A DNA stretch of 64,000 nucleotides from positions 4,876 to 68,875 of IMG/VR virus record IMGVR_UViG_3300020185_000041; one strand, given 5' to 3'. Position numbers and translations under genes: made by a program. This DNA comes from a virus. A model generated the notes under the pieces. It saw only the letters and a list, made by a program, of their open reading frames with translations. It searched no databases and was not told where the DNA came from. This document shows, in pieces, positions 17,522 through 39,500 of the stretch. Within the stretch, counting starts at the first letter, position 1; each line of letters opens with the position of its first letter.

Positions 17522-17854
17522 ATGGCTAATATAAATGTAACTTGGACCCCTGTAACAGGTTCAACCGATATCGATTCTTACGAAGTATATGTGTGTGACG
17601 GAACCTCCTCAGGTCATTTCGCCAACGCAGCCGCTCTTCAAACTAAGCTCGACGCGATTCAAGGCGGAGCATCCGTATCGTCTCAAGGACTTGAGCTTAT
17701 TGAAAGCATCACCGACCTTACCGCAACATCCACAGCTCATTCAATAACGGGTACTGGATCTTCGGTAAATTATCACTTCGGTATCGCAGCAAAAAACCAA
17801 GGCGGCTTTAAAGTTGAAGACGACACTGCTGTCTTCATGCTTCCCGTAACCTAA
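17522..17854 (+). CDS. Stand-alone fibronectin type III-like protein apparently lacking strand A
   Basis: Starts directly at a B-strand-like INVTW, then IDSYEVYV (C) and NYHFGIAAKNQGG (F strand, YxFxVxAxNxxG pattern). Confidence 0.7.
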   Translation: MANINVTWTPVTGSTDIDSYEVYVCDGTSSGHFANAAALQTKLDAIQGGASVSSQGLELIESITDLTATSTAHSITGTGSSVNYHFGIAAKNQGGFKVEDDTAVFMLPVT

Positions 17855-17867
17855 CACCCTTTGACCT

Positions 17868-18041
17868 ATGCCCCTCGTCTCAAGATGGGGCTCCAAGGTC
17901 ACTTCGGTACCTGCCCGCGAGCCCAAGGCCAACAGCCCGAAGCCAATAACTTTAACTGCTCGGCCTATACCCGTTGACCTAGAGTCAAAGGCCGAAAGCC
18001 TTGGGTCTTTGGTCGGCAGGCCTATCCCGAAAAAACCCTAA
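17868..18041 (+). CDS. Small Pro/Lys-rich hypothetical protein (57 aa, not in ORF track)
   Basis: ATG 17868 to TAA 18041 fills the gap between neighbouring genes. Confidence 0.55.
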   Translation: MPLVSRWGSKVTSVPAREPKANSPKPITLTARPIPVDLESKAESLGSLVGRPIPKKP

Positions 18042-18044
18042 ACC

Positions 18045-18959
18045 ATGAAGTACGGAAAGGCTGTAAAAAAAGCTAAGGCGGCACGCTCTGACCATCGAAA
18101 GGCCAAACTTCCATTGGTTACATCGAGAAGACCTAAGTTAGACCCTGCTAGTTTCGTAACTGTCGAACGCCAGCACGATCCGCTCGGTCGTTTTGGCGCA
18201 TCTTTGGGTACTATATTTTTTGATTCCGACGGTGATGGGTCTGAGGATACCTATGGTAGAAGAAGAAGGGTTGGATCTGTTGGTGGAGTATTAGAAGTTC
18301 CCACCTTTGGACCTATCGCTCCCCCGGTCTCTGGCCCAACCAATCTTTTAGCTGCCGAAATTCTTTCCGCTCCGGCCTCTGGCCCTAGCTCTTTAATCGC
18401 ATCGATTGTCGCCCCGGCTAATGGCCCGACTAGCTTAGATGCATCCGTCAATTCTCCAATTGCTGGCCCGACAGGATTAGGCGCCTCCGTTAATGCCCCG
18501 GCTAATGGCCCAACAGGCTTAAATGCATTTGAAGGAATTCCAGACGCACCTGTTTCCGGCCCAACGGGTTTAGGTGCATCCGTCATTGCTCCGGCTAACG
18601 GCCCAACGGGTTTAGGTGCATCCGTCATTGCTCCGGCTAATGGCCCGACAGGGCTAGGCGCATCCGAAGTGTTTACCGCGCCAGCTAACGGCCCGACGGG
18701 ATTAGGCGCATCCGTTAATGCTCCGGCCGAAGGTCCTACAGGGTTAGGCGCTGCTGAAGTGTTTACCGCTCCGGCTAGTGGCCCGACCGGTCTATCTGCG
18801 GCAAAGCTTACGCTTAATATTACTATCGAAGCGAATCAGGAAACCATCGTTGCTAAGACTACCGAGCCGGCCGGAACCATTGAATATGCTTCGGATGTCG
18901 GATATCTCTTTATATATGATGGAACCCAATGGCGCCATACTGACGGGGGTAACAGCTAA
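18045..18959 (+). CDS. Virion fibre-associated protein with 11 P-x-x-GP-T-G-L-x-A repeats and a C-terminal fibre attachment module
   Basis: Repeats at about 18320-18805; C-terminal GTIEYASDVGYLFIYDGTQW. Confidence 0.8.
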   Translation: MKYGKAVKKAKAARSDHRKAKLPLVTSRRPKLDPASFVTVERQHDPLGRFGASLGTIFFDSDGDGSEDTYGRRRRVGSVGGVLEVPTFGPIAPPVSGPTNLLAAEILSAPASGPSSLIASIVAPANGPTSLDASVNSPIAGPTGLGASVNAPANGPTGLNAFEGIPDAPVSGPTGLGASVIAPANGPTGLGASVIAPANGPTGLGASEVFTAPANGPTGLGASVNAPAEGPTGLGAAEVFTAPASGPTGLSAAKLTLNITIEANQETIVAKTTEPAGTIEYASDVGYLFIYDGTQWRHTDGGNS

Positions 18960-18966
18960 CTAAGCC

Positions 18967-19272
18967 GTGGGAGATATAAAAATATTTAATTCCGCTGGAG
19001 AGAACGATAACGAAAATACTATAACCTCTTCTGGATCGTCTGTCGGCCGAGTAAAAGATTTATATTTACTAAAATCTGAAATGGTTGAGCTTGAAGAAAA
19101 GGTTGTGACTAATACCACAAACGTGGAAAACATTACATCTGGCGCACCTGTAGAGATGGACACCTTGAAGGAAGTTGCTGACTCTCTGGACCTTGGATCA
19201 TTTTTAGATGCTTTGAACGGCCCAAAACCAGCCGCAGGCCCCTCAAATATTCAAGCAGTTCAAGTACCGTAA
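18967..19272 (+). CDS. Short fibre-like protein (GAPxxxDTLKEVA motif)
   Basis: GAPVEMDTLKEVADSL resembles a common tail-fibre motif; C-terminus PAAGPSNIQA is one copy of the repeat peptide. Confidence 0.65.
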   Translation: MGDIKIFNSAGENDNENTITSSGSSVGRVKDLYLLKSEMVELEEKVVTNTTNVENITSGAPVEMDTLKEVADSLDLGSFLDALNGPKPAAGPSNIQAVQVP

Positions 19273-19325
19273 AAAAGTTCATCCATCCGATTGAGAACTA
19301 TTAAATAACAAGGAATATATAGAAC

Positions 19326-19838
19326 ATGCCCAGCATTTTAGAAGCCTTAGGAACCTCTTTAAGCGGAAAGCTCGGAGAAAAATTAAATCTTGCCGGTGGT
19401 ACTCTTACCGGTCCTTTAATTGTTCCCGAACCTACCGCTGCAAATCATGTAGCAACTAGTAGTCAAGTAACCACTCTTGAATCTGCTATTGGAAATTATG
19501 GAGACTTTGTAGCAAGTACTGCAGATGTTACCGTTTCAATCTTTGATACCGCAGAAAATATCCAAGCGCGGTCAGGCGATCCAAAAGGTACCGTTGCAGT
19601 AGCTAGCGATACAAGCGCAGTATATTATTATAAAGGCGTCTGGATATTATCCGACATTGCAAACATTCAAGCAGACAGCATTGCAGCCGCATTAACTCTT
19701 AATATTTCTGGTGATACAGAAAGTAACATCCGGTCGCGAAGTGGAGATGCAACCGGTACCGTGATGTACGGAACAGATTCCGACAAGCTATACATCTTCG
19801 ACGGATCCGAATGGCACGAATATCAACCCGAAGCATAA
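19326..19838 (+). CDS. Tail-fibre-related protein with two attachment modules
   Basis: KLNLAGGTLTGPL..PTAANHVAT fibre motif; two R-S-G-D-x-x-G-T...Y modules. Confidence 0.7.
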   Translation: MPSILEALGTSLSGKLGEKLNLAGGTLTGPLIVPEPTAANHVATSSQVTTLESAIGNYGDFVASTADVTVSIFDTAENIQARSGDPKGTVAVASDTSAVYYYKGVWILSDIANIQADSIAAALTLNISGDTESNIRSRSGDATGTVMYGTDSDKLYIFDGSEWHEYQPEA

Positions 19839-19847
19839 TACTTTAGA

Positions 19848-20750
19848 ATGAGCGACATTAATACATACGCAGACGAAGCCGCAATTGCCGGTCTTAGCCC
19901 AATCAACGGGGATCTCGTACTTAATCAGGCGGACAGTTCTTTATACCTCTGCACCAATGCAGACGCTACCGGGATATCTCGCTGGAAAAAATTTGCGAAT
20001 GATTCTGCCGAAGCACCTAGCTTCTCAAGTAGTGCATTAAAGTTCGACGGTATTGATGACATAGCTACTGTATCGGGTAGTAGCACAGATATAGGAGCTA
20101 TGTCCCTTTGGTTTAAACCTACCGACGAGATAACAACGAGTTCGAGTCAGGCAGTTTTAATGCACACACAAAACTCCGGAATTTTTTCGGTTCGTCTCAA
20201 TTTTTCTGGCAGTTTAATAACTTTTTATACCTCTAGTTCTTCCAATGCCGTACATTTTAACCCCACAACTTACAACAATAATATACCTACCGGTCAGGTA
20301 GCAGTACCGAATTCTTTTGCAGCAGGTACTTGGCAGCATTTTGTTTTAAACTACGACTCAACCGCGGGATACCAAATATATCTTAACGGTCAGAATGTTA
20401 CCACCGCTAGCAAGCCATCAGTCGCTAAGACTGCTAGCTCCTATTTCGGAATAACAAGACCTCCAGGATATCCGTGGCAAAATTTCTTTAAAGGTTCGAT
20501 AGATGATTTCGCTGTGTGGGATAGTGGTCTTACTTCATCTGAGATACAGAGCATATTTAATGGAACTCCTGGTACGGTTGAATCGGGTAAACCAAATGAT
20601 ATTAGCGGGTTGAGTATAACACAGCCCGATTACTACTATCTAATGGGTGATGCTTCGGGCGACACTGTAAGCGCTTGCGTAAACACTAAAGCAACATCTG
20701 CGGATCTTACTTTCGCTAACACACAATCTTTCGACTCCGAGGTCTTATAA
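19848..20750 (+). CDS. LamG/ConA-like lectin domain protein (receptor-binding candidate)
   Basis: LKFDGIDD, SLWFKP, WQHFVL, IYLNG, FKGSIDDFAVWD, LTSSEI. Confidence 0.85.
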   Translation: MSDINTYADEAAIAGLSPINGDLVLNQADSSLYLCTNADATGISRWKKFANDSAEAPSFSSSALKFDGIDDIATVSGSSTDIGAMSLWFKPTDEITTSSSQAVLMHTQNSGIFSVRLNFSGSLITFYTSSSSNAVHFNPTTYNNNIPTGQVAVPNSFAAGTWQHFVLNYDSTAGYQIYLNGQNVTTASKPSVAKTASSYFGITRPPGYPWQNFFKGSIDDFAVWDSGLTSSEIQSIFNGTPGTVESGKPNDISGLSITQPDYYYLMGDASGDTVSACVNTKATSADLTFANTQSFDSEVL

Positions 20751-20752
20751 AT

Positions 20753-20995
20753 ATGAATATTAAATACGTCATCGTAGACAGCAGTGATATAGGGAATATG
20801 GATTTTAATAGCCTGCTTCAAAAATCTGAACTCTCGCTAAGATATTCGTCAGACCAGTCTAAGTTTATCGTAAAGCATGTAGGTGAAACTCCTGATTTTT
20901 TAAGCGGGTACGAGAGCCTTAACTCCGCTCAAATTTTAAGTGTGGTTAAAACATCTGAGTGGTCACCTGTAAATCCCGAGGAGGAGAATATTTAA
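20753..20995 (+). CDS. Small protein following a LamG gene (possible chaperone)
   Basis: 80-aa ORF; LRYS.D.SKFIVK...TP.FL pattern. Confidence 0.65.
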   Translation: MNIKYVIVDSSDIGNMDFNSLLQKSELSLRYSSDQSKFIVKHVGETPDFLSGYESLNSAQILSVVKTSEWSPVNPEEENI

Positions 20996-20997
20996 TC

Positions 20998-22578
20998 ATG
21001 GCAACACTTCAAACAACTGAAACCCGTCCATCCGGCGATTCTCATGCCGACGGAAAAGCATATTTCGAAACAAACACCAATAAGATGCTTGTCTGGAATG
21101 CAACCGCAGGCGCATGGATCGAGCTCGATTCCGATGACACCGGCGCGGTCTACGAAAACCGTTGGGGCTCGAGCTTTGATGGAGGTGGTGACATACTCAA
21201 TTGCGGTAATATTAGTGCAATAAACTCTGCGTCTAATGTTACAATTTCATGCTGGATAAAAGCAGACTCGTTCCCTCACAGTACATTCAACTCTATATGG
21301 GGAGGAGGTCAAGCTGGTGGCCACGCATCGCGGTTTTGGTTAAATGCTAATTCTAGTCGCTTAAACATCTATAACGGAAGTACTCAAAACTTTTCGTTTT
21401 CTACGACTGTGTCTACAGGGACTTGGTATCATACCGCAGTTGTTATAAGTGGCTCAAGTAATTTAAGTGTTTATCTAAACGGCTCACAACTTGGTTCAAC
21501 AGTTACTACTTTTAATAGTTTAACATCACAGAGTGGTGATAACTTTCAGATAGCGGGAAATCCTACTTACGTTCCGTATTTTTGGGATGGCCTAATAGAT
21601 GAAGTAGCTGTGTGGGACTCCGCATTATCCTCCCAAGATATATCAAAAATTTACAATGGAACTGCTCCAAACGGAGTACCTGTGGATCTAACCAACTCAG
21701 CCTCATACGATACCGATCGCACATCCAATCTTAAAGGATACTGGAGAATGGGAGATGATTCAAATGATACAGCAACCTCAGGCGGATCCATCGCAACCAT
21801 AACCGATTCAAGCGGAAATGGAAATGATGCAACCCAGAGCGATGTTACTAAACAGCCTACATTCAAGGCGCTTGATTCATCGACTACATCGCTTAGCTTT
21901 GATGGCTCTGATGACTCTTTTGCATTTGCCGGTTCACAGGATATTCAGCTTGATCAAACCTATACCGCTTGCAGTTGGTTTAAAGTCAACAGTATCACTT
22001 CTACATCATCTCCAAGAGGGCTTATTACTTGGGGGTCGGCAAGTGCAGGTAGGGGTAGGGGACTTTACATAACGGGGTCAAAAGTCGGTTCTTTTGGTTA
22101 TCAAGCATTGTATAATTTAGACAGCATTTCTACTATTTCTACGGGTGTGTGGTACCACGTCGCAGCTACTTATGATGGCACCACATTAAAGTTGTATGTA
22201 AACGGAACGCTAGACAGCACAAGGACTCTTAATCTACCGAGTTTCACTTATACAATGACTCACATTGGAGAGTTATACTACAGTCAAAGCAATACCTACA
22301 GGCATTTTGACGGTTCTATGGATGAGCTTGCACTTTTTAATACTGCTCTATCCGCATCAGATGTCTCCTCTCTAGCAGCATCTCGCGGAGCTCATATCGT
22401 AAATGATTTAAGCTTAAGCCCTGTTGCATATTACCGCATGGGAGAAGATGACAGCTTAACCGATGGACAGACCGGAATATCTGAAATTACTGATGCATCC
22501 GGAAATGGAAATCCTGCAACTCAGAGCGATGTTACACGCCAGCCTACAGCTAGCGTTGAGCCTATAATCTACGTGTAA
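20998..22578 (+). CDS. Double LamG/ConA-like lectin domain protein
   Basis: Two LamG repeats (WYHTAV..YLNG..GLIDEVAVW; WYHVAATYDG..YVNG..GSMDELALF), each followed by Y(W/Y)RMG; start moved to ATG 20998. Confidence 0.87.
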   Translation: MATLQTTETRPSGDSHADGKAYFETNTNKMLVWNATAGAWIELDSDDTGAVYENRWGSSFDGGGDILNCGNISAINSASNVTISCWIKADSFPHSTFNSIWGGGQAGGHASRFWLNANSSRLNIYNGSTQNFSFSTTVSTGTWYHTAVVISGSSNLSVYLNGSQLGSTVTTFNSLTSQSGDNFQIAGNPTYVPYFWDGLIDEVAVWDSALSSQDISKIYNGTAPNGVPVDLTNSASYDTDRTSNLKGYWRMGDDSNDTATSGGSIATITDSSGNGNDATQSDVTKQPTFKALDSSTTSLSFDGSDDSFAFAGSQDIQLDQTYTACSWFKVNSITSTSSPRGLITWGSASAGRGRGLYITGSKVGSFGYQALYNLDSISTISTGVWYHVAATYDGTTLKLYVNGTLDSTRTLNLPSFTYTMTHIGELYYSQSNTYRHFDGSMDELALFNTALSASDVSSLAASRGAHIVNDLSLSPVAYYRMGEDDSLTDGQTGISEITDASGNGNPATQSDVTRQPTASVEPIIYV

Positions 22579-22599
22579 AATTTTTAAAAATTAAATATC

Positions 22600-22872
22600 A
22601 TGGCAACAAAATATAAATTGTTTAGCACTCCTGAGGAGTATCAGTCAAAGCGTTCAGAAATAGAAGCATTTCACAATCTTCCTGATGGAAAAGGTTCTGA
22701 AACCTATGGTGTAGATCAGCTAATGGTTGATAATCCAGAACATGCAGATTATGGATTATTTATTTTCCCGGTTTTAACCGAAGGAAAATGGAAATGTGAT
22801 GATCAATTCGAAGCTTCCGAGCTTGTTGATCACGATTCTTCCTGGGCGAAGCCTCAAGAAGAACCCGTATAA
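22600..22872 (+). CDS. Hypothetical protein following a LamG gene
   Basis: 90-aa ORF. Confidence 0.65.
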   Translation: MATKYKLFSTPEEYQSKRSEIEAFHNLPDGKGSETYGVDQLMVDNPEHADYGLFIFPVLTEGKWKCDDQFEASELVDHDSSWAKPQEEPV

Positions 22873-22875
22873 CTC

Positions 22876-23082
22876 TTAAGCGGGGGTTGTATTAACTACG
22901 ACCCAAGACCCTGAGCCTAAGTACATATACAGTTTATCCGTATCTGTTCCTAGAGCCATACATCCCACAGGATCTTCGCTCCTACTTTTAATTTGGGCCT
23001 CTGTATCGATTATTCGAACGAGGCCCTTTTTACTTTCGACCATAAGCCGAACTGCTGTCCCGATATTTGCTACTAAGCTCAT
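22876..23082 (-). CDS. Mini fibre-module protein on the opposite strand
   Basis: QIKSRSEDPVGCMALGTDTDKLYMY matches the modules in 19326..19838. Confidence 0.7.
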   Translation of the reverse strand: MSLVANIGTAVRLMVESKKGLVRIIDTEAQIKSRSEDPVGCMALGTDTDKLYMYLGSGSWVVVNTTPA

Positions 23083-23261
23083 TCGAAGGATACCCCCAGA
23101 CTATTTTCTACATCGTTTGCGAGGTATCGAATGACGCGAGAATTAACAAGTTTTCGTTCCCATCCATATTGTTTCGCCCATCGACGAACAGTACCGGAAG
23201 AGACATCCATCTTTTCCCTGATGATTCTTGGCGAAAGATATCGAATTTCTTTTGCGACCAT
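23079..23261 (-). CDS. Small winged-HTH (excisionase/AlpA-like) DNA-binding protein
   Basis: YLSPRIIREKMDVSSGTVRRWA...RVIRYLANDV pattern. Confidence 0.7.
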   Translation of the reverse strand: MVAKEIRYLSPRIIREKMDVSSGTVRRWAKQYGWERKLVNSRVIRYLANDVENSLGVSFE

Positions 23262-23429
23262 TTCCGATTAGTAACGATTATGAGCGCTTCTTGCGACCGG
23301 TTGGAAAACGGTAGCATCCGATTGAAAAAGCGCGCGGGTAGGCGGATTATAGGAGCACAAAGACTAGGGGGAGGAATACAAAACCCTTTTTTTAACTAAA
23401 CCAAAAATAACCCAGAATATATACATACT

Positions 23430-24551
23430 ATGTCAAACATTCTTTCACAAATCGGTGCATCCGTAAAAACCAAGGTCGACGGCGTTCAGTCAAACGTTGA
23501 AGCCGAAGCAACCGCTCGCGCGGCTGCAATCGCTGCAGAAGCAGCGGCTCGCGGAACAGCAAACACAACCTTACAAGCCAACATCGACGCAGAAGCTGCC
23601 TCAGCTCGCTCCGCAGAATCTGCTAATGCTACCGCAATTTCCTCCGAGGAATCCGCACGTATCGCAGCAGTAACTGGTGAAGCTAGCGCAAGAACCTCGG
23701 CGGATACTACTCTTCAAGGAAATATTGATGCAGAAGAAACCGCAAGAATTGCAGCTGACGCTACTCTTACTACCAATCTTGCATCTGAAATCACTGATCG
23801 CCAAACCGCAGTAACCGGTGAAGCTGCCGCACGTGCATCTGCTGATACCACCCTTCAAGGTAATGTTGATGCTGAAGAAACTGCTCGTATTGCAGCTGAC
23901 GCTACTCTTACTACCAATCTCACATCGGAAATCTCTGATCGTCAGACTGCAGTATCTAGTGAAGCAAGCACCCGTGCATCTGCTGATACCGCACTTCAAG
24001 GTGAAATTGACACCGAAGAAGCCGCTCGTATCGCTGCTGACGCAACTCTTACTACTAATCTCGCATCTGAAATCTCCGATCGTCAGACCGCAGTATCTGG
24101 TGAGGCTACTCTTCGTTCAAACGCTGACGCTGCATTAGACGCTGCAAAAGCTAACATTTCTGGCGCAAGCTTTACTGGACCGGTTAACGGAACTGATTTG
24201 GTACTTAGCGGTAATCTTACCGTGCAAGGTACTACCACCAGTCTCGAAACAACCAACTCCCAAGTTAAAGACTCGATCATGCTCTTAAATGACGGAGCTG
24301 CAGGCAGCGCTAACAACGGAAACGATGTTGGATTGATCATGGAGCGCGGAAGCTCTGAGGACAATGTTGCATTGGTATTCGACGAAGGTGAAGACAAATT
24401 CGTATGCTACAAAACTTCAGCTACCGCTGCTTCGACCGACATCTCTGGTGACGACTCAAGCGCTGAGCTTATGGACATCAAAGTTAACGATGTATTCATC
24501 GGATCTGACAACCTTGGTTCCTTGGCACAGTTTGTAGCCGCTCTCGGATAA
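23430..24551 (+). CDS. Coiled-coil (fibritin-like) fibre protein
   Basis: Repeated (E)ETARIAADATLTTNLASEI.DRQTAV.GEA.AR.SADTTLQGNID; then LSGNLTVQGTTT...D.GL..ERG. Confidence 0.8.
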   Translation: MSNILSQIGASVKTKVDGVQSNVEAEATARAAAIAAEAAARGTANTTLQANIDAEAASARSAESANATAISSEESARIAAVTGEASARTSADTTLQGNIDAEETARIAADATLTTNLASEITDRQTAVTGEAAARASADTTLQGNVDAEETARIAADATLTTNLTSEISDRQTAVSSEASTRASADTALQGEIDTEEAARIAADATLTTNLASEISDRQTAVSGEATLRSNADAALDAAKANISGASFTGPVNGTDLVLSGNLTVQGTTTSLETTNSQVKDSIMLLNDGAAGSANNGNDVGLIMERGSSEDNVALVFDEGEDKFVCYKTSATAASTDISGDDSSAELMDIKVNDVFIGSDNLGSLAQFVAALG

Positions 24552-24590
24552 AAATTCCTCCCTACACTACCAGACATTCATGACTTGAAC

Positions 24591-24623: not shown

Positions 24624-24628
24624 CATCT

Positions 24629-26536: not shown

Positions 26537-28000
26537 ATGGCTGAAAAACAAATCCCAGCATCTCCAAATCCATTCGTTCAAACAAGCGATAACAATCTTG
26601 CGAATGTTGATTTGCTAACTAACACTACTTCCTATCAAGGTCTTCTTGATGGTCCTAATTCCGACTTGCGTTCACGCCTCTGGTCCGAGCTTGTAACTCG
26701 CGACGCGAGAGAGAAAAATGTATTCGCAAAGTTCATCGGCGGCGAAGGAAGCGGTAAACCAATCACTGAAAAACGCGATCTTAGCGCAGGCGGATCTGAC
26801 AAGATTACTTTCACAACTGTTGCTCCTATCCGTGGACAAGGTGTACGTGGTGAAGAAATCTTAAAGAATGCTACCGATACTCTTGATTTCGGAACATTCT
26901 CCGTTGAAATCGATCTCGTTCGTCACGCTGTTTCCTGGACCCAAGTCCTGAAACTTATGAGATTCACCGGTAAGACCATTGACCAGCTTTCAGCTGAAGT
27001 CATGTCCGAGTGGATGTCCCGTACCGAGCAAGACCAAATTCAATATGCATTGCGTCAAATCTGCACCGCTAAAGGATCTTCAAATATTCTTTCCGGATAC
27101 GGAACAGGAGCAGGCAAAGAGCTTAAATATGTTGACGGCTTAAGCACCGACATCATCCAAGAAGCTAAGCAAGCACTTATCGCCAATGGCGCTGAGCCAA
27201 TGAACACTGGTGGAGACGAAAACCAAGAAATTCCTGGTTACTTGTTCTTCGCACCAGACGCATGCTTACGCCCATTGCGCTCTGATCCCGACTACTTGGA
27301 AGCAATTACTCAAGCCGACAGCCGTGGGCCAGAGAACAAATTGTTTTCCGGAAGCTATGCTAAATGGGACAACAACATAATTGCTAACCATAATGTTCTT
27401 ATCGACACCGCTCGTGGACGCCAAGGTTCTCCATTACTCCCTACCTTCTACAACTTCGCACCTATCACTGACGTGACCGGTGGAATTGGTGGAACTGACG
27501 GAGACTACATGGCTAACTTCCGTGGTGTATCCATTAACATCCCTGGTGGCGGAGGAGAAACCTTCGCAGTAGATTCCGGAACTCATTATGTTCTAGGTAT
27601 CGACGCACAAAGCGGTGAGTACAAACTCTACAGCTATGAAGCATCTGCAGCTACTGTTAGCAGCACCGGTGCTTTGACCGAAGTAGGATTCGGAACCAAG
27701 ACTGGCGACGCATTCGCAGAAGGTTCCTTATTCGTTCAAGCTAATTCGATCGGAACTCCTATCGGATACGCACTTGCGATGGGTAAAGACGCTATGTACT
27801 TCGCTAAAGGCAAGATCTACGGTGAACAAATCTTCCATTACGACGACTTCGCCAACAGTGGAAACGAAGCTCATTTGAGCGCTGTTGGTGTTCAGTCCGT
27901 CTACGGTATGGCTGCTCGCAAGGACACACGTGGTCGCGTTCCTTCCGTACAACTCATCGAAGTTGTTCGTCAGGTTCCTGGCTTATCGCTGTCTCAATAG
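26537..28000 (+). CDS. Major capsid protein (N4-gp56/DUF4043-like)
   Basis: DLSAGGSDKITF...G.GVRGEE.L....TL.F....V.ID.VRHAV pattern; strong codon bias; followed by a terminator. Confidence 0.85.
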   Translation: MAEKQIPASPNPFVQTSDNNLANVDLLTNTTSYQGLLDGPNSDLRSRLWSELVTRDAREKNVFAKFIGGEGSGKPITEKRDLSAGGSDKITFTTVAPIRGQGVRGEEILKNATDTLDFGTFSVEIDLVRHAVSWTQVLKLMRFTGKTIDQLSAEVMSEWMSRTEQDQIQYALRQICTAKGSSNILSGYGTGAGKELKYVDGLSTDIIQEAKQALIANGAEPMNTGGDENQEIPGYLFFAPDACLRPLRSDPDYLEAITQADSRGPENKLFSGSYAKWDNNIIANHNVLIDTARGRQGSPLLPTFYNFAPITDVTGGIGGTDGDYMANFRGVSINIPGGGGETFAVDSGTHYVLGIDAQSGEYKLYSYEASAATVSSTGALTEVGFGTKTGDAFAEGSLFVQANSIGTPIGYALAMGKDAMYFAKGKIYGEQIFHYDDFANSGNEAHLSAVGVQSVYGMAARKDTRGRVPSVQLIEVVRQVPGLSLSQ

Positions 28001-28408: not shown

Positions 28409-29161
28409 ATGGCCGCCATTACATATTTAGATCTAAAAGATCAGCTTGCGTCCATGCTGGGTGCGAGCGAAGTTTCTGATCTTCCACCTATTGACCAGAA
28501 GCGTGTTGGTATGTGCGTAAACCAAGCATACCGCGAATGCTATCTTCCAATTGATGGGAAGCGTCCAATGTGGGCACAGAAACGATTCGAAGTATCATTT
28601 CCAGAAGGTATTCCTGGGGTACAACTATCATCAAATATTGTATCTGTTGATAAGATTCCTGAGCTCTTAGGAGAGGGACCGCTCTCTCCAATGAAAGGAC
28701 CGGAGGATGAGATCCGTGCGCGTGCAATATTTAGTTGGGACTTTCGAGCACCAAGCGGGAGAGGTTTAAACTTTCCACAATTTAAAGATAATGAACCCGA
28801 GGTCGGTCGTCCAATCTGGTACTATTTAGATAGCCGAAATCAGGGAGAGGATGGAAAAGTAATCCCTCGATTATATCTCTATCCAATTCCTGATAAAGCA
28901 TATGAGGTTGAATTCTTTGCTAATGTTCTACCTTCCGAGCTTGAACTAGATACCGATGAACCACGCATGCCATCTGATACTGTATGGGATATACTATTTC
29001 CTATCGCACAGGCTAAGATGCTCGCGGATCCAAGGTACAATGGAGATAACCGGGAAGTCTTAATGCGAATAGGGGAGGAAGCTAGGAAAAGACTTAGGAC
29101 TTTGGTCTCACCTCAAAAGCATAAAGGTTCTCTTCGTTTAACCAAGCGTCCGGGCTGGTAA
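28409..29161 (+). CDS. Head-tail adaptor protein
   Basis: TYLDLKDQLA..L...VNQAY...; GRP.WY..; LYLYPIPD; D.DEP.MP pattern of podovirus adaptors. Confidence 0.75.
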   Translation: MAAITYLDLKDQLASMLGASEVSDLPPIDQKRVGMCVNQAYRECYLPIDGKRPMWAQKRFEVSFPEGIPGVQLSSNIVSVDKIPELLGEGPLSPMKGPEDEIRARAIFSWDFRAPSGRGLNFPQFKDNEPEVGRPIWYYLDSRNQGEDGKVIPRLYLYPIPDKAYEVEFFANVLPSELELDTDEPRMPSDTVWDILFPIAQAKMLADPRYNGDNREVLMRIGEEARKRLRTLVSPQKHKGSLRLTKRPGW

Positions 29162-30467: not shown

Positions 30468-33345
30468 TCAAAAGTTTGAAGAGCTCGAATCTAAGCTCGC
30501 AGCTTTAAGCTCGCAGGTCGAAGACCTTGAGCAAGAGACCGAAGTCGATCCGTTCTTCGAGGACGATGTTCGTAGGGTAATAGACGATTTTAAAAGCCGT
30601 GAGCTCGCAGGTCTTGAGTCGGAGGACGAAGATTTTGATGATGATGATGACTCTAGCTCGGATGATTTTATAAGCGTTCAGACTACAGCAGGTCCAAGCT
30701 TTAAAACTCATTGGATTGCTCCGACATCCTGCGGAAATATGACCCGCGACCTTGCTCGCGATGCCTTTGTCAAAGGAGCCGCGGATAGATATGGTACTAG
30801 CCAGCAAGTAAACAACGGGGATGTTCTTATTTTACTATGCCGCGAGGCTGTGGCCGAAGAGCCGGAAGAGGGTAGCGAGGCTGAGGAGCCGGAGCCCCCC
30901 AAGAAAATATGTAGATATGTTGGGTTGGCTTATAATACATTAATTCATCCAGCCTCTACCGAGCCACCTAGCGAGACCGAAGAACTAATTTCTGCACCGG
31001 TTGGAAACTATGAAATATTTGTATGGAGCTCATGCGAATGCTCGGATGAGCCTGCAGAAACCGTTGTTCTCACGTCCATATTTGAAGAATCTACCGGGTC
31101 AACATCCAATGGAAACTATGCGAGCATTGGAGCTGACGAATCTCCAGACATGTCAAACGCTGACGGGTTATTGACTGAAGCTTCTCTAAGAAAAAGCGAA
31201 TATACAGACAGTTCTAATTTAGCCAAAGGACTGTCTAACACGCTATCTAAAAACGATGCCGGCTACAAAGCTCAGCTTGTACAGCTATCCAAGGATCTTA
31301 GCAGATACCATCTAGATCAAAAAAAGAATCCGCTGAATTTTGAAGCTGATAAGACAAATCTAAACTCTCATGGATTTGGTTCGGATCTTTTTGTATCCAA
31401 AAATCTAGAGCTTTCGAACGGAGAGTGCGGTAATCTTGAAACTGTAAGTATATCAGGAGAAACCTTTGACTTAGCTTTGCTTAAAGAAGGTACTCCTAGC
31501 TTAGCTTCTACTTTTCTTTCAACAGCAAAAATTAGCTTAGGTACTGCCGTAAGTATTGGCGGAACATTTAATTTAGATGTCTACGACACTAATCCAGTAT
31601 CGTTAGGATCTGACTTGGGATTAGTTACAGGAAGCACAGTATTCCTTCCGGTTATTTCGGAGACGAATGCGGATGAAATTGCTAATGCTGATACTATAGA
31701 TTCGCAGGCGTTTAGCTTAACAGGTGCTAATGTTTCCTCAGATAGCTCTGGTGTAACTGTATCTATTGGAACATCTGCTAGCACAATAGCTGCAAACTAC
31801 TCCTCCGGTTTATTGACGCACAAAGATGATCCAAATGTCAGTCCTGGTAGTATCAGTTTTACTATACCCAATGCTTCGGGCGGGACGGACGGGACGAGCG
31901 ACAACTACACACCTAATCTATTTAAAGCCTCAGTAAATAGTGGTACCGCGTCCGAGTTTTACGAAAAAAGCGTGTCTATATTTTCAAGCAGCGATGCATT
32001 AATCAACTTTGTAGACGGTGTCGCGGTATCGCTTTCTAACCCGTCGTATACTCGTATAAGCGGGCTATCTTTAGATGCATCTAATAAAGACGGAACTGTA
32101 GATGCTACAAAGCTATCCGATATATCAGTTCGTGGAGTGTACGATGTAATCTATGAGTCTGAGGAGACGGGGGATGCTCGATACTACATAGATTACATAT
32201 ATCAAGATATTACTCTTACTATTCAGAGCGGGTTGGTTACGCAGACAGAACTCGGATCTTTGACAACGGAATCAAAAGGCCCTATAAATGTACCGGGAGC
32301 AGATTTAAAATATGGTTGCGATCCCGAATATGGCTGTCAGCCAGATCCTGCTGGTGAGTTTTTTGATTCCTCATGCGGCTCAGTGTGCGAGTCTGAAGAG
32401 TTAATTCTTTCCTACAGGCCTTCAAATATTTGGATATATACAGAATCGTCATATGAAAATGGAGAGTTTTGTTTTAACCTTGAATCATCTCATGAATCAA
32501 CTCCGGCTGGTGCGGATTTACAAAACCAATTTTATACGAATGGCGGTCATTTAAAGGCTCAAAAGATTGCGGGTAAAAAAGTCGATAATTTCTATGTAAA
32601 CAATGTTCTAATTCCGGAAAACACTATTTATTATGCGGAGAAAGATCCGTACGATGTATGTAATGCTGTACGGTTTGAACATTCATTTAGAAGGTACCGC
32701 GAAAATATATTAGACGATGGTTCAAGATGTTGGACTTTTATTTCCGAACATATATACATGCCTGGGCAAGGAGACGATAGAACTGTAATATGTACTAATA
32801 ATGGGCGAGTAGTTTCTAAATTAGATGCCCTCGGTATAAATGTTCCCGAGTATCAAGTTAACAATTTACCTATCGGTCAGGACTTTTATGTCGATAGCAC
32901 AACAGGAGATTACAACGGAATTTCTATTCAATCTACGGCACCTGGAAATACGGAAAATCCACCGCTCGGCGAATGTTCAACAGCGGCTCAAATAGATTAT
33001 CAAGCAAGCGGGAATTCTACCCCATCTGAAATAGACCATGAAGATACAATAGTATATCCTAAAACTACATCGACTACAGATGTAAATGTAAAGTTAACAC
33101 TTCCGAGCGACGGGTATATAGGCCGCTCGGGTTTGAGCGCCCTATATCTAGGTTTTACAAATTCTGACGGGTCTAAACTAGAAAATCTGGAAGCTTACCC
33201 TTATCGAGATGACGAATTAAGGGGCAAACCGGTAGAATTCACTATTCGTATACCCGAAGGAAGTACGTCTTTAACATACGAAATTAAACTGTCTCCTATA
33301 GGCCTTCCGCCCGAATCATTTATTCTTCACTTAACTTCGCAATAA
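30454..33345 (+). CDS. Large acidic tail/spike protein
   Basis: 963 aa, Ser/Thr/Asp-rich with Cys clusters. Confidence 0.6.
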   Translation: MLEDDQKFEELESKLAALSSQVEDLEQETEVDPFFEDDVRRVIDDFKSRELAGLESEDEDFDDDDDSSSDDFISVQTTAGPSFKTHWIAPTSCGNMTRDLARDAFVKGAADRYGTSQQVNNGDVLILLCREAVAEEPEEGSEAEEPEPPKKICRYVGLAYNTLIHPASTEPPSETEELISAPVGNYEIFVWSSCECSDEPAETVVLTSIFEESTGSTSNGNYASIGADESPDMSNADGLLTEASLRKSEYTDSSNLAKGLSNTLSKNDAGYKAQLVQLSKDLSRYHLDQKKNPLNFEADKTNLNSHGFGSDLFVSKNLELSNGECGNLETVSISGETFDLALLKEGTPSLASTFLSTAKISLGTAVSIGGTFNLDVYDTNPVSLGSDLGLVTGSTVFLPVISETNADEIANADTIDSQAFSLTGANVSSDSSGVTVSIGTSASTIAANYSSGLLTHKDDPNVSPGSISFTIPNASGGTDGTSDNYTPNLFKASVNSGTASEFYEKSVSIFSSSDALINFVDGVAVSLSNPSYTRISGLSLDASNKDGTVDATKLSDISVRGVYDVIYESEETGDARYYIDYIYQDITLTIQSGLVTQTELGSLTTESKGPINVPGADLKYGCDPEYGCQPDPAGEFFDSSCGSVCESEELILSYRPSNIWIYTESSYENGEFCFNLESSHESTPAGADLQNQFYTNGGHLKAQKIAGKKVDNFYVNNVLIPENTIYYAEKDPYDVCNAVRFEHSFRRYRENILDDGSRCWTFISEHIYMPGQGDDRTVICTNNGRVVSKLDALGINVPEYQVNNLPIGQDFYVDSTTGDYNGISIQSTAPGNTENPPLGECSTAAQIDYQASGNSTPSEIDHEDTIVYPKTTSTTDVNVKLTLPSDGYIGRSGLSALYLGFTNSDGSKLENLEAYPYRDDELRGKPVEFTIRIPEGSTSLTYEIKLSPIGLPPESFILHLTSQ

Positions 33346-33346
33346 T

Positions 33347-36300
33347 ATGCCAAACTACGAATATCAAACTACTGTATCTTTGGGTGGTGAGTATAAAGAA
33401 AAAGCCCCAAGGAAAGAAGGCTTTACCACATATGTAAACGGTACCGTGGATGTTACAACTCCTGGTGAGTATGTAATTACATACACCCACTTAAAACCTG
33501 AGCCGTTTAAATCTATAACTGAGTCTAGATTAGTTACCGTATCTAATGAAGGTTCTTTAGATGATACGCCTGAGCCTATTGTCCATCTATATGGAAATAG
33601 TGTTGAAACTATTAGCCGAGGCCAAGAATTTGTAGATCCTGGTGCTTATGCACTTAGTCATCCAAATGCTCTAAGTAGTGATGCATCAAATTTAGTTGTT
33701 AAAACTGTATCCTCTGTAGAAGAAAATAGTTGGTCGTCCCAACCAGTTGGGAACTACACAATTTTATACTATGCGGTATCAGAAGGAAAGCGCGTAGGAT
33801 TTGCCGCTAGAACAGTTATTATAGAAGTAGGCCCGACCTTGCTAGAGTTGTACGGCTGTTCGAGACTGTATATAGAATATCCAGAAGACGGTACTGTGCC
33901 TATATATGCCGGTGTGGACTATTCTGAAAGCGGTTCGCATATTACTAAAGATGCAGGCTATAATATTGAGGGATCTGACTACGATTTAAAAATATTTGTA
34001 AAGCGAGAAAGTGGTGGGAACTCGTATATTGTTACACCTGATAATATATTTTTTACAGGCGACCCGGATTTTAGTCAGACTTTCAATATTTACTACTCGG
34101 TTACAACTTCTTCAGGCGTTCAGAAACTAGCTATTAGAGAAGTTACTATGGTTAAGCCTGGAGAAACTGATGGAAGCATTTTATCTGGTTTAGCATTTCA
34201 AGAAGAATCTGATGACGGATGTGCAGATGTTGCGCCAATAACCTCAGAAGATACAGAATACGATGATTTGTTTGATGAACTTGGAGATGCTATAAATGAC
34301 GATCCTGATTTAACAATTGGAGAGGATTTACCAGAGCCAGAAACTAATAATTCTCTAGTAGTTCTTTGTGCGGGAGATACTGCATATAATGGAAATATTT
34401 TTCCAAGTTCTTGGACTTCAAACCCTGGAAAGATTCCAGAAACTATTGTAGAAACTCATTATACACCCGCGAATCCCACGGGGTGGGATCTTTGGTGGAG
34501 GACAAAAACTGGTATGGTATTGCCAGGAGATACTGAGCAGACCGAATGGTTTGCAGAAAAAGGTACTATACCTTGGAGACTTCATAAAGTTCATAGCGAA
34601 ACAAAAGTTACATACTCCTATGGACTGGGGGCTGGAGTAGTATTTTTTAGAAACCCATCAAAAGATTTTATATTTTCTACACTTGAACCATACTACGACG
34701 CTGCTGGAAATCGAATTGGTGATATATTCTACGGATTTTATGGCGCGCATATATTTACCGAAGAATATGGATGGACGACCAATCAAACTAAGAATAGTGG
34801 CACATTATTTAATAGTGGAACTTATTGGGGTAAATCAGCTAGTTCTGTTACCCGTGTAACACAAGAGCTCAAAGACCACCATATGGAGGTACTCTCATCA
34901 GGAGATCATCAATATACAGACGATGGACAACCCTTGCGCGTTCTTAGCGATCCAAACAGTAATACGCTAACCTCTGGTCGTTATGCAGGTGTTGTATTTA
35001 ACTCGCACCCTTTATGGCATGCTTTTCAAATATCTATAAATACGCAAGATACAGGCACTGTTGCGGGTGAAGATGTTATTAGTCTTAGATGGTTTGATAG
35101 AGCTGGTGGGAGAGATGTTAGTTCTTATTGCGACTATTATATCCCCAATTCTGACCCTCCCACTCTTCCTCTATTTTGTAATACTACTCGCGATAATTAT
35201 TTAGGGTTTGATGGTTTTAATCCTTATTCAGGTCATGAGTATACACCCGCCGGTCCTATTCCTGGATGCCTTGTTGAAGTTACATGGACCGATAATCCTT
35301 ATTACAATACTTCACATCCTAATAATACAACTAATTACTCCAATATTCACCCTGGGTTTGATCACTTTTCGGCAGAATTCGAACAGTTTGTCTACTGGTT
35401 TTTAAAAGAAATTTACGAGGATGAGGTGCTCTATGTAAACAATAGGGGTGATCAAAGCTGGGTGCGCATTGATTCGGAAAACCCTACAATGAATAAGTTC
35501 ACCGGTTTAAAAGGTACATATTCTTGGAATCATTGGAGTGTTGCGCACCTCAGTGGTGGTGGTGAAGTTACACAGTGGGGGCTTAGATATATCAGTAATT
35601 TTAAAGCAGGCACCCGAATAATAGAAGATGACCCCGATAACAGCTTGGACAGTCTACCTGCTGGTCAAAACTACTATAAAGGTCTCGCTGTCTGGGATAA
35701 ATCTAGTGCAGGAAATGCTTGGGCAAATCCACAAGTTAATCCAGCTCAAGCGGTTCCGGTATACCCGCTAATATCCGGTAATTTAGACTATTCGGTACCT
35801 CACACAATTAATCCATGCACCCCACCTCCTCCATCCCTTCCTCTATTTTGTAATACTACAATTGATCCATATGAAGGATACGACGGAAATAATTCGTTCG
35901 CATACACACCGGGAGGCACCGTTCCTGCAATCCTTCTTGAAATTACATGGACGGATAATCCTTATCAAGGAAATCATACTTGGTCCTTGTATAAGTACTC
36001 CAACATCTCCCCGCATACCAACTATTTCGATATGCATGGCTCTGAAACTAAATGGCTTTTGAGAGAAATTTACGAGGATAAGGTGCTTTATATTAGTCTT
36101 AGTGGAGAGCAACGTTTTGTAACGATTGATCCGGGCGATCCTACAATGAATAAGTTCGTGGGTAGTAGAGGTACATATTCTTGGAATCATTGGAGTATGG
36201 CTTTCTACGAGGGTGTTCTTTATGGTCATAAATACCTTAGTAATTTTGAGACCGGTACTCGAATATTAGAAGATGACATTGATAACAGCTTGGGTAGTCT

Positions 36301-36490
36301 GGATCATTCAGGCCCGCATCAGGGTCAACAGTACTATAAAGGTCTCTTAGCCTTTGATAGAACCAATTCTTGTTGGGCGGATCCACAAAATAATCCCTCT
36401 AAAACGCTAAAGACATATCCGTACGGTGCTGTCGTATTCGATACTCCGCATACATACTTCATTAATGAAACAATTAATCCATGCACATAA
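33347..36490 (+). CDS. Tail protein with DUF5011-type Ig-like domains and a duplicated C-terminal domain
   Basis: GTVDVTTPGEYVITY, P...LYG......G.EFVDPGA; two about 220-aa copies LPLFCNTT...TINPCT. Confidence 0.75.
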   Translation: MPNYEYQTTVSLGGEYKEKAPRKEGFTTYVNGTVDVTTPGEYVITYTHLKPEPFKSITESRLVTVSNEGSLDDTPEPIVHLYGNSVETISRGQEFVDPGAYALSHPNALSSDASNLVVKTVSSVEENSWSSQPVGNYTILYYAVSEGKRVGFAARTVIIEVGPTLLELYGCSRLYIEYPEDGTVPIYAGVDYSESGSHITKDAGYNIEGSDYDLKIFVKRESGGNSYIVTPDNIFFTGDPDFSQTFNIYYSVTTSSGVQKLAIREVTMVKPGETDGSILSGLAFQEESDDGCADVAPITSEDTEYDDLFDELGDAINDDPDLTIGEDLPEPETNNSLVVLCAGDTAYNGNIFPSSWTSNPGKIPETIVETHYTPANPTGWDLWWRTKTGMVLPGDTEQTEWFAEKGTIPWRLHKVHSETKVTYSYGLGAGVVFFRNPSKDFIFSTLEPYYDAAGNRIGDIFYGFYGAHIFTEEYGWTTNQTKNSGTLFNSGTYWGKSASSVTRVTQELKDHHMEVLSSGDHQYTDDGQPLRVLSDPNSNTLTSGRYAGVVFNSHPLWHAFQISINTQDTGTVAGEDVISLRWFDRAGGRDVSSYCDYYIPNSDPPTLPLFCNTTRDNYLGFDGFNPYSGHEYTPAGPIPGCLVEVTWTDNPYYNTSHPNNTTNYSNIHPGFDHFSAEFEQFVYWFLKEIYEDEVLYVNNRGDQSWVRIDSENPTMNKFTGLKGTYSWNHWSVAHLSGGGEVTQWGLRYISNFKAGTRIIEDDPDNSLDSLPAGQNYYKGLAVWDKSSAGNAWANPQVNPAQAVPVYPLISGNLDYSVPHTINPCTPPPPSLPLFCNTTIDPYEGYDGNNSFAYTPGGTVPAILLEITWTDNPYQGNHTWSLYKYSNISPHTNYFDMHGSETKWLLREIYEDKVLYISLSGEQRFVTIDPGDPTMNKFVGSRGTYSWNHWSMAFYEGVLYGHKYLSNFETGTRILEDDIDNSLGSLDHSGPHQGQQYYKGLLAFDRTNSCWADPQNNPSKTLKTYPYGAVVFDTPHTYFINETINPCT

Positions 36491-36535
36491 TGCCAAGCGA
36501 TTGCTACACAATGAGAAAGCGGGGAGTATAAGGCG

Positions 36536-39500
36536 GTGAGGTTTTTCCGGATACCATCCTTCACCGGGATCGAAGCGCATCGCGATGACGCCGATCGCGG
36601 CTCCCTTCGTTTAGTCGAGGGTTGCTTACCGCACGGGCCGGGCGGTTTGCGTAGCGGTCCTGTGTGGAACAAGATCGGCGATGTTCAATATGTCGCGGAT
36701 GGTGACCAAAATAAAATATCTTCCGCAGATGATGGATTAGGAAATTCTATAGTCTTTGTATCCCGACAGAACGAGGTTCACGATATAGCACTATTAACCA
36801 CTGAACATACCGAGCTAGAATCTTTCACAGAGCAGGAAGAATTTACATTTGAAAATCCATCGCTTTATACCGCTGGTCCTGCAAATATTACTCCAATAGG
36901 TAATAAACTTTATGCCGTCGGAGACGGGAGTAATGGATCAATATTTGTAGGTAAAGGCCCGGACGATACTTTTGAAGTTTTTCCAGACGAAAGTTTATAC
37001 AGTCAAGAATGGTCAAGGTTTCCAAAATGTCAGTTCTTTGTTCAAGGGCCTAAGAAAACAATCTTTGCAGCAGGCAATCCAGATAAACCATTAACCGTAT
37101 ACATATCAGAGCCTGCAGGCCTGACCTCTCCGTATCGAGATACTCCTTACAGTACTGAGGATACAACCTATAACCAGGGCGTTCTTTCGACCGTCGACAT
37201 TTTAGGTTCGAATGCGAGCAAAATAACCGCACTTTCAACCCGAGGAGATCAAGTAGTAGTACATACGGACAAAGGATGTCATCTTCTATATGCACCAGCT
37301 CCAGACCAAGCAAATACCGGATATCGTGTTGAACAAGCACCAGCGACTAACTTCTCAGCAGCTGTAAATTCAAAAGTTGTTTCCCGAGCATCTGGATCAT
37401 TGACATATTGGGTAGGGCACGACGGCCAAGTTTACAAGGATGAGGCCGCAAGTCGTGGGTCGGAGGACTTAAGAAGTCGCGCTGATGAAGACCAAGCAAA
37501 CTGGAAAAGTAAGGGCGTATGGGAAGATGAATTACCTACAGACCTTACTAAATCTTTTGCTCTGTACTCCCCACAGACCGGGATGTACTGGTTCTTTGTA
37601 GAGTCCGAGGAAAAAAAAACTTTTGATCTAATTCCAAGAACCCCGTTGAGGGGGCCTAGGAATTTAATAGCTCGTATACTAGCCCCGTTTTTCGGACCAA
37701 CAAACCTAGAGGCAGTAATCCTTCCGCCAGAGGTTGGGCCCACAAATTTAGAGGCTGAAGTTCTTCCGCCAGAAGTTGGACCAACAAACCTAGATGCAGA
37801 AGTTTTACCACCAACTGAAGGGCCTACAAATTTAGAAGCTTTAGTACTTCCGCCGGAGGTTGGACCTACAAATCTAGAAGCTATAATTCTACCACCAGAG
37901 GTTGGACCTACAAATTTAGATGCAGAAGTTTTACCACCAGAAGTCGGACCTACAAATTTAGATGCTGAAGTTCTCCCGCCAGAAGTAGGACCTACAAATC
38001 TAGAAGCTATAATTCTACCGCCAGAAGTCGGACCTACAAACCTAGAGGCAGTAATTCTCCCGCCAACTGAAGGTCCTACAAATTTAGATGCAGAAGTTTT
38101 ACCGCCAGAGGTTGGACCTACAAATTTAGAGGTAGTAATTCTCCCGCCAGAGGTTGGACCTACAAATTTAGAAGCTATAATTCTCCCTCCAACTGAGGGT
38201 CCTACCAATTTAGAGGCAGTAATTCTCCCTCCAGAAGTCGGACCTACAAACCTAGATGTAGTAATTCTCCCGCCAGAGGTTGGACCTACAAATTTAGAAG
38301 CTATAATTCTACCGCCGGAGATTGGGCCTACAAATTTAGATGCGCTAGTACTTCCGCCGCAAGTCGGGCCAACTAATTTGCAGGCTGTTGAACTACTAGG
38401 TCCTTTCTTCGCTAATGTTGAAAATGTTGTCGGAGGGTGGAATTTAACCGGGTATTCTTCAGTAAAAAATACAGGTAACTGGACATCGTTTTTAAATTCC
38501 TACAATTTAAGAAATAATACTGGAACACCTGTGACTTTAAGTGTTCGGGCAGAAGTTGACAGCCAACTCGTTGACGCACATTTCCACAAAATATACATAC
38601 CGCAAGAGGTTATATTTAATCCCGATATCGATGATCCTTACTGGGATTCTGTAAACCGTTGGTACTATAAATCTGAGGTTGACGGTTTAACATATAATCA
38701 AGATGCAACCGTTGAAATAATATGGGCCGCATCAGCCGTAGCTCCTTACTTAGGACCAACAAATTTACAAGCTTCTATACCCGACGATTTTACCCCTGAA
38801 CCAGAAAGTAAATATATTGTCGTAGAAATATCTGAAGAGGGTACAAACCTTGATGACTTCAACGGTTGGCAAAGTAATGAGCTCGGATACAGCGATCCTG
38901 GAGGTTTACTCACAGTTGAAGAAACTAGATACCTTGGGACTACGAGCGAAAAATCCGGAGTAAAACACAATGTCGGAGCTCAAAGAATAGAAATCGGAGG
39001 GAGGAACGGGCATCTTAATTCCGTATATCATCCAGGAATTCTTGTAAGAAATGATAACGGATATTTTATGAATGGATCCGCTTACACCATGTCCGCTGTG
39101 GCTAATGAAGGTTGGTCGTTTACGGGCTGGGATATTAAGCACCTAAACACTACTCCAGAGTCTGAAAGGCTTGGTACTGCTGCGGGCGAAGTGCAAATTG
39201 TTAGTGGTGCTTTAGACAACCCTACAGATCTCACTCTTTTAGTAACTGACCATACAAACTATATAACCGTAAAAGCTGAATTTATTGACCTCGCCCCCGA
39301 CGCTGATGAAGTGCCCGATCCCGGAAACAAATATAACTTAGAAAATTGCGAGTGTGTAAGCGATAGCGGGTCTGGATTGGGAGACTTTGACACGCTCCAG
39401 GAGTGCGAAGATTGGAAAGCAGCAACTACTTTTAACTGTGTAGACGGGGAGTGTGTAGAAGATGATATGCAAATGGGTACATATTCAAGCTGCGCAGATT

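Follow-up and report, generated by a model that had tools for sequence, protein, structure and literature searches.

Rope-Based Appendages of Described Phages and a Proposed Counterpart in the Analyzed Locus

Extended rope polypeptides with tandem docking sites are described for the podophages GP4, VP1 and A1002 and for the myophages Bas63 and Sf14. In the sections of these reports drawn on here, the ropes of GP4, Bas63 and A1002 complete or augment small subunits with an incomplete sandwich, which are lined up end to end like beads, with 2, 5 and 11 docking sites per phage in the solved ropes. The whisker dimers of Bas63 sit on the rope domain of the collar “such as beads on a string”, and in this phage, as well as in GP4, the rope proteins run through the “incomplete sandwiches” of the small subunits and complete them (PMC12609058). 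The rope takes three forms: a separately encoded protein in GP4 (PMC13730344), which carries five dimers and interlocks with an Ig-like collar (PMC12609058); an extension of the collar itself in Bas63 (PMC12609058); and a fusion to one half of a split nozzle in A1002, where the nozzle is divided into a nozzle-rope and a nozzle-base protein and the nozzle-rope gp39 docks 11 fiber dimers via an augmented β-sheet (PMC13730344). Here, a related, chain-like appendage is proposed for a 64,000-nucleotide (nt) stretch of virus DNA, called the window (positions 4,876 to 68,875 of the IMG/VR record IMGVR_UViG_3300020185_000041, which is most of this 68,875-base record). The proposal concerns a 110-amino-acid (aa) protein resembling a fibronectin type III (FnIII) domain without its strand A, and arrays of a 14-residue unit carried by other proteins of the same phage, an uncultured marine short-tailed phage (podovirus).

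The units, with the motif PxxGP(T/S)xLxA, would form extended rope segments. One rope would be separately encoded (18045..18959) and another fused to a nozzle-like protein (36536..39622), while other virion proteins would bear single units for docking. The FnIII protein would be an incomplete β-sandwich and is the likeliest candidate for the bead: each unit would occupy the empty place of strand A, next to the conserved N-terminal B strand, and thereby complete the sandwich. The FnIII subunits would then line up along the rope, the number of units setting the length of the fiber. With a proposed separate rope gene, a proposed nozzle-like rope fusion and an incomplete-sandwich gene beside the rope gene, the window resembles GP4, Bas63 and A1002.

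Judged from the sequences, it is probable that the arrays are ropes docking small subunits. Given that they are, the strand-A-less FnIII protein is again the probable bead. As neither part is certain, the chance of the full statement is about even. The features in question are the following.

17522..17854, plus strand: 110-aa FnIII-like protein, starting at strand B, without strand A; proposed bead (from the Pfam fn3 match, AlphaFold2 and the family)
17868..18041, plus strand: conserved 57-aa proline-rich open reading frame (ORF), starting with MPLVSRWGS; likely anchoring module of the rope
18045..18959, plus strand: 304-aa putative rope protein, with a conserved basic N-terminal part, an array and a C-terminal hairpin module
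18321..18809, plus strand: array of 11 units of the type APANGPTGLGASVx, with spacings of 14, 16 or 17 residues
18967..19272, plus strand: 101-aa protein whose C-terminal tag is a single unit (nt 19225-19266)
36536..39622, plus strand: 1028-aa protein with a nozzle-like N-terminal part, an array and C-terminal domains
37640..38395, plus strand: array of one degenerate and 17 tandem units of the type PPEVGPTNLEAxxL, with a spacing of exactly 14 residues throughout
38741..38782, plus strand: isolated unit APYLGPTNLQASIP between the C-terminal domains

An initial annotation, made from the letters of the window, had listed four of these ORFs (17522..17854, 18045..18959, 18967..19272 and 36536..39622), and all four are as it described them. 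The 57-aa ORF, which lies between the FnIII gene and the array gene, had been overlooked.

Strand A Is Absent from the FnIII Protein and Its Family

The protein 17522..17854 matches the Pfam fn3 profile (PF00041) with an E-value of 1.1e-5 and 25.9 bits, above the curated cutoff of 25. Only profile positions 16-75 of 84 are covered, by residues 4-97 of the protein, and the strand-A part of the profile therefore has no counterpart. In this alignment, the beginning of strand B falls on residue 4. Compared with the seven-strand sandwich of fn3 (A-B-E / C-C'-F-G), it is strand A that is absent. It cannot be supplied in cis either, since an in-frame TAA is located five codons upstream of the ATG of the FnIII gene.

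Strand A is absent throughout the FnIII family. This family was sampled by a search of 5.8 billion proteins, yielding 49 clusters of 80-121 aa, and by a profile search of 1.84 billion representatives, yielding 45 hits. All full-length members found in the profile search are 80-120 aa long, and their residue 1 corresponds to profile position 1; in longer proteins, only the F-G part was matched. From residue 1 onward, the approximately 70 distinct members all read M-A-N-I-x-x-x-W, and even in distant members the chain begins with the B strand. An fn3 match at E ≤ 0.01 was obtained for 28 of 47 members. No N-terminally extended or fused form was found among the approximately 70 distinct members or the 45 profile hits, and none of these 45 hits is a Rosetta-stone fusion, in which a unit would precede the FnIII body. 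The N-terminal B strand is the most conserved part of the protein (0.83, compared with 0.46-0.49 for strand E and the flanking loops, in 70 members).

The structure was predicted with AlphaFold2 from a 47-row alignment, which replaced a useless single-sequence run (predicted local distance difference test score, pLDDT, of 35.7). The resulting model has a pLDDT of 87.3 and a predicted template modeling score (pTM) of 0.81. It consists of six strands (residues 2-4, 19-25, 57-63, 73-75, 82-92 and 95-97/104-109, the last being the G strand) with an inserted helix (36-47), and its first 10 residues are the least confident ones (68). The best 50 rows of a VIA-align search with this model are all FnIII domains (Z 5.5-6.3, root-mean-square deviation 2.5-3.4 Å over 73-83 residues), as are most of the 50 rows of a wider search; in both searches together, Z ranges from 5.2 to 6.5 with 73-84 residues aligned. 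As Z remains below 8, this likeness in fold counts jointly with the Pfam match and not alone. In single-domain FnIII chains, the alignment begins at about residue 10-19 of the chain, which leaves strand A without a counterpart. Foldseek found no match in the PDB at E ≤ 0.001, the best rows being FnIII domains at E ~0.1. Profile coverage, the approximately 70 members and the structural alignments agree with the initial annotation, according to which the protein starts at strand B and lacks strand A.

A strand-A-less FnIII domain is also found at the start of larger proteins. In three loci (L067:4260-5258, L069:1840-3696 and L070:3910-4908), proteins of 333 and 619 aa begin with such a domain, and a stop codon stands directly before their ATG. 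The domain is followed at once by a unit-like motif, leading into another sandwich-like stretch (“FLQWKY” in L067). The N-terminal position of the domain suggests that it serves for docking, and these proteins may be cargo that is docked by the same principle as the beads.

The 14-Residue Units Form Periodic Arrays

The unit motif is found 11 times in 18045..18959 and once at the C-terminus of 18967..19272. The large protein 36536..39622 contains 19 units: a degenerate one (GPRNL) at residue 373, 17 in tandem at residues 387-611 and an isolated one at residue 740. These numbers are identical to the counts of the initial annotation. A six-frame scan of the window confines the motif to these three proteins, and Tandem Repeats Finder reports arrays with a period of 42 at 18411-18666 and 37694-38343.

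The periodicity is strict. In 22 array proteins, 139 of the 177 intervals between units are exactly 14 residues long; deviations within the arrays are insertions only (15-19 residues), and the spacing is never shorter than 14. Conservation is concentrated at P(-3) (96%), G-P, S/T(+2) (87%), L/I(+4) (96%) and A(+6) (81%). The number of units varies among relatives, with 13, 19 and 23 in the large protein (13 and 23 being those of the homologues of 36536..39622) and 2-14 in the gene beside the FnIII gene. In the 5.8 billion proteins, 31 array-bearing relatives of a length similar to that of 18045..18959 were found and no more, which is why the array proteins are regarded as a lineage-specific invention.

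The unit keeps the positions of an FnIII A strand. Genuine A strands in the proteins examined read “PTGLSV...LDW” and “VPTNLSA...LDW”, with the tryptophan of the B strand located about 12 residues further on.

The triple β-spiral, which is the shaft fold of the adenovirus fiber, was also considered for the arrays and was dropped, as the hydrophobic pattern of the unit does not have the alternation of that repeat.

The FnIII Gene and the Arrays Are Linked in Both Directions

Starting from the FnIII gene, 29 loci including the window were tabulated, four of which end before usable downstream DNA. In 23 of the other 25 loci, 2-14 units are located at most 1.5 kb downstream of the FnIII gene, with FnIII identities to the window's protein going down to 28%. 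In the reverse direction, an FnIII gene was present just upstream in all 14 loci found via the 57-aa ORF and in all four loci found via a different array protein, P0121; for the protein P0122, no viral locus was found. The co-occurrence of A-less FnIII genes with arrays, to which the initial annotation had pointed as a check, is thus seen from both sides.

The cassette has a conserved order, consisting of the FnIII gene, the 57-aa ORF and the gene of the array protein. The 57-aa ORF has 31 invariant columns among six loci. In L004-L008, L012/L038, L010, L033, L036 and L067-L070, it constitutes the N-terminus of the array protein itself, and it is likely the anchoring module of the rope. Further downstream, the C-terminal tag of the 101-aa protein is kept in L001, L002 and L011. 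In L036, the array motif is changed to PASGLDIDSAS, and the 101-aa homologue has the same alteration in its C-terminal tag.

The cassette also shows mosaicism. About 180 nt past the FnIII stop codon (17855-18041 in the window, encoding the 57-aa ORF) are near-identical in L002, L011 and L012, while the FnIII genes of these loci are only 45-73% identical to that of the window. The mosaic border is located exactly at the FnIII stop codon.

Two other loci contain variants of these elements. Just past the portal region of L064 (L064:1102-1821), an ORF encodes an array protein with four units, the N-terminus of which resembles the window ORF 16970..17173. In L050 (L050:5001-5714), an 89-aa FnIII-like gene, starting at strand B, is located directly upstream of a homologue of 39777..40457, and this homologue has two strand-A-like motifs at its N-terminus.

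Comparison with Solved Ropes and Other Strand-Complementation Systems

The proposed appendage differs from the solved ropes in its bead, in its rope and in the distribution of the units. The bead would be a 110-aa FnIII protein without strand A, whereas the beads of GP4, Bas63 and A1002 are dimers of 140-171-aa proteins, built of an N-terminal helix, a small sheet and a sandwich. GP4 Fiber-1, Bas63 gp5 and A1002 gp40-41 gave no sequence match to the FnIII protein in the PDB searches and are not among the best 50 rows of either structural search. In the window, the putative rope repeats its 14-residue unit in tandem almost perfectly, with up to 23 sites in its family; in comparison, the word “repeat” occurs 0 times in the main text on A1002, and the part of the Bas63 report considered here mentions no repeats. 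Single units as tags on other proteins are a further difference. In the large protein, the rope lies C-terminal to the nozzle-like part, whereas the fiber dimers of A1002 attach to the N-terminal part of gp39, according to the sections on this protein.

The initial annotation stated that it knew of no described phage system of this kind. A literature search combining donor-strand complementation, bacteriophage and FnIII found no paper, and a broader search on the rope principle returned PMC12609058 and PMC13730344 only. These two reports make the statement outdated, since ropes completing incomplete sandwiches are described for Bas63 and GP4 in the former and the nozzle-rope of A1002 in the latter. 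Going by the parts of both that deal with the ropes, a precedent for the mechanism has been solved, though one that involves neither an FnIII bead nor a periodic rope. New here would be a second bead fold, rope sites that are legible in the sequence, unit tags on several virion proteins and an uncultured marine lineage. The system is not categorically new.

Strand complementation is also known outside phages. In chaperone-usher pili, an Ig-like subunit lacks a strand that another polypeptide contributes to complete the fold, and the result is a non-covalent fiber. In pilins, the vacancy is that of the C-terminal G strand, which is filled by the N-terminal extension of the following pilin, identical or related. 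The initial annotation had drawn this analogy, and the likeness in mechanism stands. The details do not: the G strand is present in the FnIII model, the missing strand is the N-terminal A strand, the donors would be arrays on a separate scaffold instead of the next subunit, and no chaperone or usher is part of the scheme.

In the tandem β-zipper, a repeated disordered peptide of bacterial fibronectin-binding proteins adds one strand to each fibronectin F1 module. Those modules are complete and covalently linked, and the added strand is an extra edge, whereas free subunits, each with an unfilled core position, are proposed here. A rod of FnIII/Ig-like domains on the virion, as formed by Hoc-like decoration proteins and Ig-like fiber repeats, would be the end product in the window as well. 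However, the former are single chains with G-to-A linkers, whereas the latter would be made non-covalently from a short gene and a peptide track.

Weighing of the Proposed Appendage and Its Alternatives

Several results weigh against a rope-and-bead appendage. Seven of 12 matches to the core motif of the unit are located at FnIII A strands, compared with a background of 3.4%, but these come from two proteins only. When the whole 14-mer was used as a position-specific scoring matrix (PSSM), the A-strand regions of 22 real FnIII domains did not score above random windows (p = 0.54). The confident model of the FnIII monomer (pLDDT 87.3) was obtained with no partner, and the protein thus need not be unstable alone. 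The solved beads have another architecture, as described above, and did not appear among the best structural rows. On the genomic side, no array was detected by the pattern used in L042 and L050, which encode the most divergent, shorter FnIII members, and the 101-aa homologue of L033/L034 has no C-terminal tag. The loci L002 and L011 have identical rope genes but FnIII proteins with 73% and 47% identity to that of the window; the FnIII protein and the rope are therefore not tightly co-evolving. A conserved gene order in a phage structural module does not by itself mean contact.

A complex prediction with the FnIII family alignment and residues 168-211 of the rope family gave interaction scores (ipSAE) of 0.27, 0.35 and 0.30, around the mark of 0.32 and run without controls, and is taken as evidence on neither side of the binding question. 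The interpretation of the initial annotation, in which each repeat docks one copy of the small protein, stands in its observed parts, namely the absent strand A, the co-occurrence and the A-strand positions kept by the unit, while the binding itself is a proposal.

Phage fibers commonly contain periodic repeats rich in proline and glycine. The arrays could be autonomous spacers or self-assembling shafts, made of proline-rich linkers or of a fibrous fold, without any bound subunit, and the FnIII protein could be an unrelated decoration or assembly factor encoded in the same gene block. This explanation is unlikely, although the FnIII protein is predicted to fold confidently alone, the same rope is paired with different FnIII types and the whole-unit PSSM test was negative, all of which it would accommodate. 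Neither fixed positions for P, GP, S/T, L/I and A across unrelated proteins nor a strict minimum of 14 residues would be expected of a plain linker. The motif of L036 is changed in two proteins together, single units as terminal tags would not be expected, and the two-way linkage with a strand-A-less FnIII protein would be a coincidence. Furthermore, analogy with A1002, as far as its nozzle is described (PMC13730344), suggests a hexamer for the nozzle-like host protein, which would argue against a trimeric shaft.

A different role for the FnIII protein is quite unlikely. It might serve as an anchor or as a collar comparable to the Ig-like one of GP4 and Bas63, binding once to the 57-aa module or to the N-terminus of the rope, in which case the units would hold another bead, for example the 170-aa protein 19326..19838. 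In the sections on the collars, the independent rope of GP4 interlocks with the Ig-like collar and the collar of Bas63 carries the rope (PMC12609058), and the gene order of the window (portal, small ORFs, FnIII, 57-aa ORF, rope) would agree with such a role. The 57-aa module, being the rope's N-terminus in many loci, holds its own invariant stretch resembling P-x-P-x-T-L-T-A. In size, the 170-aa protein falls among the solved beads, and it is 70-85% identical where the FnIII proteins are 28-41% identical. Nevertheless, the unit motif fits FnIII strand A, and the FnIII protein is the sole recognized incomplete sandwich in the cassette and its match the sole family hit in the window. Within the cassette, it also varies most and is exchanged most freely, a behavior more fitting for an exposed bead than for a structural ring. 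The 170-aa family, for its part, has no detectable relative among solved structures.

Very unlikely is a third explanation, in which the open edge of the FnIII protein is closed otherwise, by homo-oligomerization via the N-terminal strand or by augmentation from the capsid or portal, with the units binding another partner: the invariant N-terminus shows that the edge matters and not what it contacts, and the first residues of the Bas63 whisker dimers are described as providing reciprocal sheet augmentation (PMC12609058), but the units' likeness to FnIII A strands and the strict two-way gene adjacency would be left unexplained.

For the rope-and-bead appendage, we infer that virions contain the FnIII protein, that this protein binds the units and in which stoichiometry it does so; one monomer per unit is a guess, the solved rope fibers having dimers. 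A more far-reaching version is put forward tentatively. According to it, each unit provides a free FnIII monomer with the core strand A that it lacks, and a 110-aa gene together with a repeat track of 2-23 copies builds a poly-FnIII rod of programmable length. The unit would also be a universal docking tag, for proteins with a terminal unit or with an N-terminal strand-A-less FnIII domain, and the whole would represent a natural non-covalent tag-and-catcher system.

The Large Nozzle-Like Protein

Based on its N-terminal 370 aa, the protein 36536..39622 resembles a nozzle-rope protein. The nearest family-bearing cluster of this part in the ESM Atlas is PF11134 (Phage_stabilise, nozzle-type), with a score of 0.94 that is to be taken as a lead only. 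A run of nine A nucleotides (37611-37619 in the window) marks the transition from the nozzle-like part to the array. It is kept in eight of eight homologous loci (L015, L018 and L026-L031), although nearby synonymous sites differ. A frameshift at this run would yield a rope-less form of the protein.

Further Features of the Appendage Block

A hairpin-like motif, G-T-x-x-Y-x-x-D-x-x-x-L-[FY]-I-[FY]-D-G-x-x-W, recurs in the block downstream of the array. It is found at the C-terminus of the rope (18810-18959), twice in the 170-aa protein (19326-19838) and at the N-termini of two proteins with a LamG domain. The regions containing it are 18810-18959, 19326-19838, 19848-20750, 20959-22578 and 22876-23082, the last on the minus strand. 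This recurring motif is probably a second, separate attachment module.

The 170-aa protein is among the most conserved parts of the appendage block, with identities of 70-85% across loci in which the FnIII protein is only 28-41% identical to that of the window. It is a possible alternative bead. A weak PDB row, “neck fiber gp82N” at E = 0.25, was rejected, having been lost in the profile search.

Genome Context and Relatives

Outside the appendage block, the following features were identified.

14936..16963: portal gene (phrog_1216)
26537..28000: major head protein gene (phrog_334)
Minus strand of the window: integrase-like ORF

The gene order from the portal onward is portal, small ORFs, FnIII, 57-aa ORF and rope. 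The protein 28409..29161 has a sub-threshold Pfam match to the adaptor of the podophage SU10 (E = 1.9e-5, 25.6 bits compared with a cutoff of 27), which points to a podovirus tail of the SU10 general type.

In a tblastn search of 50,697 GenBank phage records, the FnIII protein, the nozzle-like part, the capsid protein and the 170-aa protein had no match, and the rope protein 18045..18959 gave rows at E 0.2-0.4 only. PHROGs contains no family for the FnIII, rope or large proteins, and the ESM Atlas provided leads only and no structure. Sequence searches of the PDB returned nothing meaningful for the FnIII profile, the nozzle-like part, the whole 1028-aa protein, the rope profile, the 170-aa protein and its profile, or 39777..40457. 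Rfam contains nothing matching 17400-18200.

Significance

If the proposed appendage is real, the rope-and-bead principle reaches a second, unrelated bead fold and a lineage of uncultured marine phages, which has no cultured relative for its capsid, nozzle-like and FnIII genes. It would be the first rope with docking sites that can be read from the sequence as a periodic repeat, so that the length of the fiber and the number of its sites would become predictable from metagenomes. To protein engineers, it would offer a natural split-FnIII pair, made of a 110-aa body and a 14-residue strand. It would also explain the varied repeat number and the swaps of FnIII alleles at exact gene borders, through which these phages could alter the reach and surface of their appendage at little cost.

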